A DNA stretch of 64,000 nt from an uncultured Actinomycetes bacterium. Its GTDB lineage: Bacteria; Actinomycetota; Acidimicrobiia; IMCC26256; PALSA-555. The stretch covers positions 22,826-86,825 of the forward strand of contig CAWKGF010000005.1 of assembly GCA_963849135.1 (NCBI GenBank), read 5' to 3'. Below, piece by piece: positions 62,921 to 63,958 of this stretch (its first letter is position 1; the number at the start of each line of letters is the position of its first letter). A model generated the notes under the pieces. It did no database searches. It worked only from the letters and a program-made list of their open reading frames with translations, and was not told the origin of the DNA. The translations under genes and the position numbers were made by a program.

Positions 62921-63958
62921 ATGAGCGACGCCACGATCATCGACAACGACCGGGAGACGTCGGTGCACGCCACCATCGGATCCGACCGCTTCGCCGTCTC
63001 AGCCGACGAGCTCGAGGCGGCGACGGGCTGGACCCTGAAGCCCGAGGGTCTGTGCCGCGACGCGGTGTGCGTTCCGGTCCGGGACCGCGACTCGCTGGTC
63101 GGCGCGGACGGCGTCGACCTGGCCGCGTTCGCGGCGCTGCTCGACCGGCCGCTGGCGGTCGAGTCGGCGGTCGGGCTGGCGGTGCTCGGCGAGGCCCCCG
63201 CCGTGCTCGAGCAGGCCCAGCGGTCCCTCGACGCGCCCGACGTCACCCTGCCTGATCTCGACGGGCATCCGGTGTCGCTGTCCGACTTCGACGGCCGCAA
63301 GCGGATGCTCTTCGCCTGGGCGTCCTGGTGAGGCTGCCGCTGGGACCTGCCCGTGTGGCAGGAGCTGCACGAAGAGCTCGCCCCCCGGGGGCTGGTCATC
63401 CTCGCCGTCGCCCTCGATGAGGACCTCGACACGATCCGGCACTGCGCCCGGGACGAATTGCCGGTCCCCCTCAGCTACCCGGTGCTCCTCGACCGCGACC
63501 ACCTGCTCGCGGAGCGGTACGGGATCGTGAACGTCCCGACGACGGTCTGGATCGACGAGCAGCGACGACTCGTCCGACCGCCCGCCATCGCGCCGGCCGA
63601 CGACCGGTTCCGCGACTTCACCCAGATCGACTCGTCGGTGCACCACGCTGCGCTGCGGCGCTGGGTGCTCGACGACGTCGCGCCCCTCACCGAGGCCGAG
63701 ATCCACGATCGGCAGGCGCGACCCGACCGGGCGGTGCAGCAGGCCCGAGCCGAGCGGCGACTCGCGGTCCATCTCCTGCGGGTCGGCGAGCCCGACCGGG
63801 CCCAGCAGCATCTCGCCGCCGCGCTGGCTCTGGCGCCGAACGACTGGACGATCCAGCGCGGGTCGATGCCGCTCCGCGGCGAGGACCCGTTCGGGCCGGC
63901 GTTCTTCGACTTCTACCAGTCGTGGGAAGCCGCGGGGCGCCCGGGGTACGGGTCGTGA
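62921..63958 (+). CDS. ResA/TlpA-like thioredoxin-fold protein with in-frame TGA (63329-63331) at the active site: candidate selenoprotein (WASW-U-GC)
   Basis: ORFs 62915..63331 and 63353..63958 share one frame and are separated only by one TGA. Read-through gives [49 protein letters not shown]...YGIVNVPTTVWID, a redoxin fold. Confidence 0.6.
63334..63361 (+). promoter_or_regulatory. Candidate bacterial SECIS hairpin
   Basis: CUGCCGC-U-GGG-ACCUG-CCC-GU-GUGGCAG. 11 pairs (one G-U), one bulged U, and an apical loop 14-18 nt after the UGA. Confidence 0.45.

Follow-up and report, generated by a model that had tools for sequence, protein, structure and literature searches.

An in-frame UGA probably decoded as selenocysteine in a three-domain ResA/TlpA-like oxidoreductase gene of an uncultured acidimicrobial actinomycete

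Thioredoxin-fold selenoproteins with selenocysteine (Sec, U) in a U-G-C site have already been catalogued. The 2008 study of Global Ocean Sampling (GOS) data reported a "Prx-like (UGC-containing)" family, assigned to pfam00578, with 46 Sec sequences and 855 Cys homologues, and enriched in non-marine samples (PMC2398784). A UGC-containing TlpA/Prx-like family is a table entry in that paper and in Zhang et al. 2026 (PMC13188914), given without a selenocysteine insertion sequence (SECIS), a domain architecture or Sec/Cys switching. The second paper also gives criteria for a bacterial SECIS (bSECIS): a loop of 3-9 nt, a stem of 4-16 bp, a spacing of 16-37 nt from the UGA, a minimum free energy (MFE) of −7.5 kcal/mol or lower, and a G at loop position 1 or 2, with G or U as the usual next base. 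Here we analyse a gene of this kind in a 64,000-nucleotide stretch of DNA, hereafter the window, from an uncultured actinomycete of the class Acidimicrobiia (assembly GCA_963849135.1, contig CAWKGF010000005.1, positions 22,826 to 86,825). Judging from the comparison of sequences, the locus is very probably one 345-residue selenoprotein gene rather than two open reading frames (ORFs), with the UGA at 63329-63331 decoded as Sec, and what it adds to the catalogue is a new sister clade within a kind of selenoprotein already known.

The TGA, on the forward strand, is the sole interruption between the ORF 62915-63331 and the same frame running to the stop at 63956-63958; GTG 62915 is an alternative start for the whole coding sequence. 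The original prediction, made from the window alone, had described these two same-frame ORFs and the peptide obtained by reading through the TGA, and both descriptions are accurate: the motif W133-A-S-W-U137-G-C139 is read directly from the sequence. When Cys was put in place of the stop, the read-through protein matched the Pfam families AhpC-TSA (PF00578, 67 bits) and Redoxin (58 bits) over residues 104-218. This match straddles residue 137, as does the fold modelled by AlphaFold (see below), in agreement with the claim that neither half is a complete thioredoxin fold. A genome-wide reassignment of TGA was considered and discarded: more of the window's confident ORFs end ordinarily in TGA (16 of 26) than in any other stop, and a reassigned genetic code is therefore excluded.

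A search over 5.8 billion proteins returned two kinds of matches, full-length Cys proteins and 201-aa C-terminal pieces. All 111 full-length homologues (316-367 aa, 50-65% identity) had Cys at the TGA column, in the motif W-C-G-C-R. Those of 335-367 aa aligned end to end with the read-through protein, and columns C137, G138, C139 and R140 were invariant. The pieces were nine 201-aa proteins, 77-100% identical, starting just past the TGA; the DNA around them, taken from independent ENA, JGI and Logan assemblies, showed the same synteny and a TGA at the same codon, in 7 distinct sequences. A scan of GTDB with one genome per species added 80 loci, mostly from metagenome-assembled genomes (MAGs) of Acidimicrobiia/Actinomycetota, with a few from Binatia and Myxococcales. 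Pooled with the earlier loci, they gave 48 distinct TGA-type and 38 distinct TGC/TGT-type sequences. The TGA was kept in these 48 sequences, from independent assemblies, down to about 48% protein identity. Its carriers include species-representative genomes of Acidimicrobiia/Actinomycetota, Binatia and Myxococcales, and one such locus (L017) lies on a complete chromosome, OY970233.1. Alignment of homologues at the TGA column was one of the checks proposed with the prediction, and its outcome is in line with Sec replacing Cys. Among 225 in-frame TGA candidates in about 1.4 Mb (window and related loci), only the TGA at 63329-63331 aligned consistently with Cys in uninterrupted orthologues, and the same scan yielded no second selenoprotein gene in the window or related loci. 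A sequencing or assembly error at 63331, the true base being C or T, has a negligible probability: apparent indel errors do occur nearby in the assembly, but the change required here is a substitution, and dozens of independent assemblies, made by different projects with different technologies, have the identical TGA.

The main sources of the relatives are MAGs from soil, peat and freshwater. Members of the Sec type, with the same SECIS-like element (described below), were also found outside Actinomycetota, in three Candidatus Binatia MAGs (L067, L079, L081) and one Myxococcales MAG (L084), and several MAG titles are taxonomically doubtful, for instance "Bifidobacterium breve" and "Bifidobacteriaceae". 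Together these observations point to horizontal transfer, or to mis-binning or mislabelling.

Among TGA-type genes, dN/dS was 0.29-0.62 upstream of the TGA and 0.13-0.28 downstream, for dS values of 0.5-1.0. Since these ratios are well below 1 on both sides, the gene is not a decaying pseudogene. A nonsense mutation of TGC or TGT to TGA, inactivating a Cys-type oxidoreductase gene, might have been thought of, as one substitution turns TGC into TGA and the window has frameshifts in both genes just upstream. Such an origin is nevertheless exceedingly improbable in view of the purifying selection at that level of divergence, of the same TGA being shared by 48 distinct sequences as far apart as 48% protein identity, and of a downstream hairpin that was gained or lost together with the TGA in six independent pairs.

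Codons +1 to +3 past the TGA varied synonymously only, with Gly encoded by GGC, GGT, GGA or GGG, Cys by TGC or TGT, and Arg by CGC, CGT or CGA. Cys139 is invariant yet uses both its codons (TGC/TGT = 33/15 in the Sec forms), and is therefore translated and selected at the protein level. This bears on another possibility, namely that two proteins are made, one of 136 aa ending at the TGA and one of 201 aa restarting at GTG 63353. The JGI and ENA gene calls give exactly these ORFs, and in the window the GTG, codon +8, does stand 21 nt past the TGA as the apparent start of the second ORF. In 34 of the 48 Sec forms, though, codon +8 is GTC or GGG, neither of them a start codon, and the whole segment Gly-Cys-Arg-(Trp/Tyr)-Asp-Leu-Pro between TGA and GTG is kept under synonymous change. 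The synonymous retention of Gly-Cys-Arg and the mostly non-start codon in relatives argue against termination followed by re-initiation. As, moreover, neither piece is a complete thioredoxin fold and every Cys form is a single polypeptide, we regard the production of two proteins as highly unlikely.

Downstream of the TGA we found a SECIS-like minihelix, with arms C-CUGCC and GGCAG-G and the loop CGUGU, in which G-U occupies positions 2-3. The spacing from the UGA to the loop is 20 nt, and the calculated energy is −7.5 kcal/mol with 5 bp and −10.4 kcal/mol with 6 bp, so that the element agrees with every one of the bSECIS criteria of PMC13188914. The 5-bp core with a loop of the form N-G-[U/G]-N-U was present in 48/48 TGA-type sequences versus 1/38 of the Cys type, and the full stem in 48/48 versus 8/38 (Fisher, 4e-16). 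Most lineages have GGUCU as the loop, the window's clade has CGUGU, and CGGGU occurs in a few. The Leu codon in the stem was CUG in 46 of the 48 TGA-type genes, versus 16 of the 32 Cys-type genes that also encode Leu there (2e-6). Both non-CUG cases were compensated on the other arm (CUUCC/GGAAG in L088; UUGCC/GGCAA in L079, where both changes are synonymous). RNAalifold recovered the minihelix from the TGA set and nothing at the same place from the Cys set. It also proposed an upstream helix over the UGA (columns 1-23), which was dismissed, since G-U pairs and columns under amino-acid constraint make it up.

On a neighbour-joining tree, parsimony counted six or seven switches between Sec and Cys. 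In six phylogenetically independent sister pairs, the minihelix motif was present in 6/6 TGA members and in 0/6 Cys members. The peptide downstream also differs between the two types: it reads L-P-V/G-W-Q in TGA-type proteins, because the loop requires G-U or G-G, versus L-P-A-W-Q, I-P-S-W-Q and others in the Cys type. A single Cys-type gene (L039:556-747, Cys codon TGC followed by GGCTGCCGTCACGACCTGCCCGTCTGGCAG) keeps the SECIS-like hairpin in full (CUGCC/CGUCU/GGCAG), and may have changed from Sec to Cys recently, leaving a "fossil" SECIS.

Read-through might also proceed without SECIS or selenium, if a tRNA for Trp, Cys or Gly, whether near-cognate or suppressor, decoded the UGA, perhaps with help from the hairpin. 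Hairpins can indeed stimulate read-through, and no Sec machinery was found in the window or in the 93 related loci (see below). We nonetheless hold this to be very unlikely. The UGA falls exactly at the catalytic Cys column, and other TGA codons of the window act as normal stops; with Trp or Gly in place of the nucleophile the enzyme would be inactive, which is at odds with the purifying selection on the gene; and the N-G-[U/G] loop and its spacing are of the SelB-dependent type, the loop being identical to that of Escherichia coli fdhF in most lineages. The central claim of the original prediction, that the UGA is recoded as Sec where a ResA/TlpA-like fold has its nucleophile, is thus strongly supported by the Cys column, the conservation of the TGA, purifying selection and the co-occurring SECIS-like element.

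The hairpin that the prediction had proposed as a SECIS is another one, of 28 nt (63334-63361), with 11 bp, a bulged U and the loop ACCUG, which shares the 3′ arm of the minihelix. It does exist as the MFE fold of the local sequence (−18.1 kcal/mol). As a SECIS it was rejected: in a sequence of 71% GC its stability is unexceptional (z = −0.83; 40 of 200 shuffles folded at least as well), other TGA-type genes preserve just 7-11 of the 11 pairs, and it departs from two of the criteria of PMC13188914, lacking a G at loop position 1 or 2 and having a spacing of 13 nt, below 16. The conserved element is the minihelix, and it is there that the compensatory changes that the prediction had suggested looking for were found (L088 and L079), not in the longer hairpin.

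Several observations weigh against decoding of the UGA as Sec. The conserved stem has only 5-6 bp, most of its columns are invariant, and covariation rests on two sequences. The amino-acid constraint on L-P-x-W-Q could be behind part of the stem conservation, a point countered by the Cys forms that have the same stem-encoded residues and use other codons. No SECIS family of Rfam matched at gathering or permissive thresholds, where only chance matches (E>5) were seen, bacterial SECIS elements being hardly covered by Rfam. In the window, the more stable hairpin of −18.1 kcal/mol overlaps the minihelix and competes with it, and the assembly has indels in two neighbouring genes. Finally, selA, selB and selD (searched with E. 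coli probes) and tRNA-Sec (searched with ARAGORN) were not found in the 64-kb window or in 93 related loci, the latter spanning about 1.3 Mb; tRNA genes of any kind are lacking from the window, as are Rfam families scoring at the gathering threshold. Within the class the machinery has indirect support: in another order of Acidimicrobiia, Actinomarinales, a 2026 preprint reports selA/B/C/D from all 84 complete genomes. An actinobacterial selA was also noticed elsewhere, on an Arthrobacter plasmid.

Table 1. Position of the predicted selenoprotein gene, its parts and its neighbours in the window.
Feature	Position	Strand	Basis
Complete predicted selenoprotein coding sequence, read through TGA; 345 aa, Sec = residue 137	62921-63958	+	Single frame, one internal TGA; homologues align end to end
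UGA as predicted Sec (U137), N-terminal, nucleophilic position of U-G-C after the conserved Trp	63329-63331	+	Cys column in homologues
Cys139 codon, putative resolving partner in U-G-C	63335-63337	+	Invariant across both types
N-terminal domain, residues ~1-103, mixed beta/alpha, C-x4-C in a beta-hairpin	62921-63229	+	Model and alignment
ResA/TlpA-type thioredoxin fold, residues ~104-230, with W-U-G-C-R	63230-63610	+	Pfam, Foldseek
C-terminal helical extension, residues ~231-345, weakly TPR-like, ending DPFG..FF.F...WE.AGRPGY	63611-63955	+	AlphaFold helices
SECIS-like minihelix: 5′ arm 63346-63351, loop 63352-63356, 3′ arm 63357-63362	63346-63362	+	Conserved with the TGA
Longer alternative hairpin, sharing the 3′ arm of the minihelix	63334-63361	+	Local MFE fold; window's clade only
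Start of SMP-30/gluconolactonase-like (SGL) gene, running off the window	63955-64000	+	Synteny only
UvrD-like helicase gene, split over two frames (-3 to -2 near 61557-61578)	59812-61985	-	Orthologues are single ORFs of 731-755 aa
His_Phos_1 (phosphoglycerate-mutase-like) gene, frame change -1 to -2 near 62367-62378	62170-62758	-	Directly upstream

The predicted protein has three parts (Table 1). The fold of the whole was studied on P0002, the nearest full-length homologue of the Cys type (65% identical), modelled with AlphaFold in place of the exact read-through protein; this model has a mean predicted local distance difference test (pLDDT) of 93.5 and a predicted TM-score (pTM) of 0.90. The top Foldseek matches of its central domain were the Bacillus subtilis ResA structures 1su9 and 1st9 (1su9_B: E 1e-10, TM-score 0.82 normalised to the target). 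The N-terminal ORF of the window was itself modelled, with pLDDT >95 over residues 1-90. The original prediction had seen an N-terminal domain of about 135 aa: it is indeed a separate domain, of about 100 aa however, the last 35 aa or so before the TGA lying within the thioredoxin fold. Its signature is an invariant G-W-x-L-x-P-x-G-L-C-x4-C-x-P, common to the NF041054 family discussed below; the two cysteines, Cys45 (63053-63055) and Cys50 (63068-63070), were invariant in 40 aligned sequences. The domain gave no significant match in the PDB by fold search (best E 0.5) and belongs to no Pfam family. The C-terminal extension has many invariant columns and, at residues 277-312, a match to TPR_14 (E 9e-4) under the gathering score. 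In a simple hydropathy scan, the Kyte-Doolittle maximum over 19 residues was 0.33 in the first 40 aa. As an N-terminal hydrophobic segment is absent, the protein is probably cytoplasmic, unlike ResA and TlpA.

The best match in NCBIfam was to NF041054, "ResA-like WAxxUGC motif-containing protein" (WAxxUGC_long), with 220.3 bits and E 4.4e-65 for a cutoff of 300. The match covers mainly positions 7-205 of the 354 in the profile; the C-terminal third diverges. The scores of ten Sec-type relatives (199.5-239.7 bits) and of nine further distant members (67-239 bits) also lay under the cutoff. One distant member, P0259, stood above it (301.7 bits), and this protein aligned end to end with the window's clade at 36% identity, including the C-x4-C of the N-terminal domain. 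The original prediction had mentioned a curated WAxxUGC family: the family exists and the motif fits it, but by score (220 versus 300) the window protein is not a member. Homology to NF041054 is clear from these alignments, and the window's clade is a sister clade of that family. ResA or TlpA proper was ruled out by the C-x-C arrangement in place of C-x-x-C, by the lack of a membrane anchor and by sub-threshold scores against the curated models, 62.9 bits for ResA (NF002854, cutoff 170) and 45.2 bits for TlpA (NF047696, cutoff 230). A peroxiredoxin of the AhpC/TSA or Bcp type was also ruled out. There is no P-x-x-x-T/S-x-x-C(U): U137 is preceded by L-F-A-W-A-S-W, in which position -7 is not Pro and position -3 is Ala. 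The JGI label "peroxiredoxin" comes from the generic PF00578 match alone; NCBI calls the Cys forms "TlpA disulfide reductase family protein" or "redoxin domain-containing protein".

In public gene calls, each member of the Sec type appears as two ORFs, one of about 137 aa and one of 201 aa, the latter named "hypothetical protein" by JGI. This is the case for records P0012, P0032, P0054, P0056, P0060, P0062, P0074, P0092 and P0117 with their upstream ORFs of about 137 aa (loci L001-L013), and these upstream ORFs have no Pfam match. An exhaustive search with the C-terminal ORF of the window gave 291 clusters (50% identity) at E <= 1e-10, of which the best 150 were inspected. Among these 150 there were 27 full-length representatives with W-C-x-C-R, 25 of them with C-G-C, and about 30 C-terminal pieces of about 200 aa, many of which start with M-W-Q. 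Within this best half, split (Sec-type) genes and intact ones occur in roughly similar numbers; some of the pieces may be truncated by contig ends. We conclude that the splitting of Sec-type genes is a systematic annotation error for the clade.

The gene that follows, assigned to SGL by synteny, has a GTG start overlapping the TGA stop of the selenoprotein gene (GTGA), and in syntenic relatives a 292-aa SGL gene starts 4 nt before the end of the oxidoreductase gene. Because of this overlap, co-transcription and translational coupling of the two genes are suggested. The synteny His_Phos_1 / SGL / zinc alcohol dehydrogenase (Zn-ADH) / PIG-L is found in the window's clade only (about 21 of 86 loci), and the gene neighbourhood revealed no family-wide partner gene, other recurrent neighbours having been read by eye only. 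The two genes that precede the locus, on the other strand, are each broken by a change of frame. For the UvrD-like helicase this is a frameshift or an assembly indel, and two such genes side by side suggest long-read assembly errors rather than biology. It had been stated that the other disrupted genes of the window are broken by indels, and this held for the two that were checked. The closest relative, L001, likewise has split genes (fumarase and helicase). A tRNA-Cys(GCA) gene stands near the oxidoreductase gene in 12 loci (L035, L040, L042, L044, L045, L046, L049, L058, L061, L066, L074 and L090), mostly of the Cys type with two of the Sec type, about 1-3 kb upstream in most and up to about 9 kb in L074 and L090. 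Plain synteny is the probable reason, though such a neighbour is curious beside a gene that alternates between Cys and Sec.

How Sec would be inserted can be sketched as follows. In fdhF, the lower part of the stem melts at the ribosome. A parallel can be drawn for the long hairpin of the window: with the ribosome at the UGA, the first 12-15 nt or so downstream would occupy the mRNA channel, which would hold the long hairpin's 5′ arm, and the 3′ arm, left free, could pair into the minihelix. At that point the long hairpin is probably melted. The minihelix would then recruit SelB-GTP-Sec-tRNA(Sec), as the apical minihelix of fdhF does. The product would be a soluble, probably cytoplasmic thiol/selenol-disulfide oxidoreductase of three domains, in which the usual C-x-x-C is shortened to U-G-C. 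Sec137 is the likely attacking nucleophile, and Cys139 would resolve the selenenylsulfide; the C-x4-C of the N-terminal domain is a candidate internal relay, or a site mimicking the substrate. A bolder version, which we put forward as doubtful, is an uncharacterised cytoplasmic selenoenzyme in which this C-x4-C forms a built-in redox relay to the U-G-C, or a joint ligand set with it, and in which, in the window's clade, the long hairpin could compete with the minihelix and so tune Sec insertion.

What is known of recoding is unchanged by this gene. The consequences are in part practical: as the cutoff of NF041054 misses the clade, the NCBI pipeline would neither name nor recode these genes. 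A lower cutoff, or a sister model combined with the element CUGCC-NGKNU-GGCAG, would fix the annotation across Acidimicrobiia and in some Binatia and Myxococcota. The locus also contributes a SECIS from high-GC Actinomycetota, well supported and with a loop like that of fdhF, and a clear case in which a SECIS dictates the downstream peptide (L-P-V/G-W-Q in the Sec forms), with repeated Sec/Cys exchange. The natural Sec/Cys switches, at least six of them, would amount to a clean natural experiment on what selenium gains over sulfur in a C-x-C site.

Among curated families, the likeness to NF041054 is the closest: the W-A-x-x-U-G-C motif is exact, the length is 345 residues for 354 profile positions, and the three-part layout is the same. 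The window's clade differs in falling below the curated cutoff of this equivalog family, and in its divergent C-terminal third. With the UGC-containing TlpA/Prx-like family (Zhang & Gladyshev 2008) it has in common the pfam00578/cd02966 fold, a single Sec in U-G-C, many Cys homologues and a lean towards non-marine samples, a likeness drawn from the table description of that family (representative MDE0950781.1). ResA, the TlpA of Bradyrhizobium and DsbE/CcmG belong to the same subtype of the thioredoxin fold, with the nucleophile directly after the conserved Trp. They have C-x-x-C and an N-terminal membrane anchor, and they act outside the cytoplasm in cytochrome maturation, whereas the protein described here has U-G-C, one residue shorter, no anchor and two extra domains.

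For the recoding signal, the system to compare with is fdhF of E. coli (NC_000913.3), where UGA is codon 140 and is followed by the minihelix GGUUGC-AGGUCU-GCACC. In both genes the hairpin lies within the coding sequence, just past the UGA. The loop AGGUCU of fdhF matches the GGUCU of the majority of the family, while the window has CGUGU; G-U is exposed in the loop in all of them, at +25/+26 from the U of the UGA here and at +23/+24 in fdhF. Unlike in fdhF, the conserved core here has no bulged U, its stem is limited to 5-6 bp and the lower stem is not conserved.

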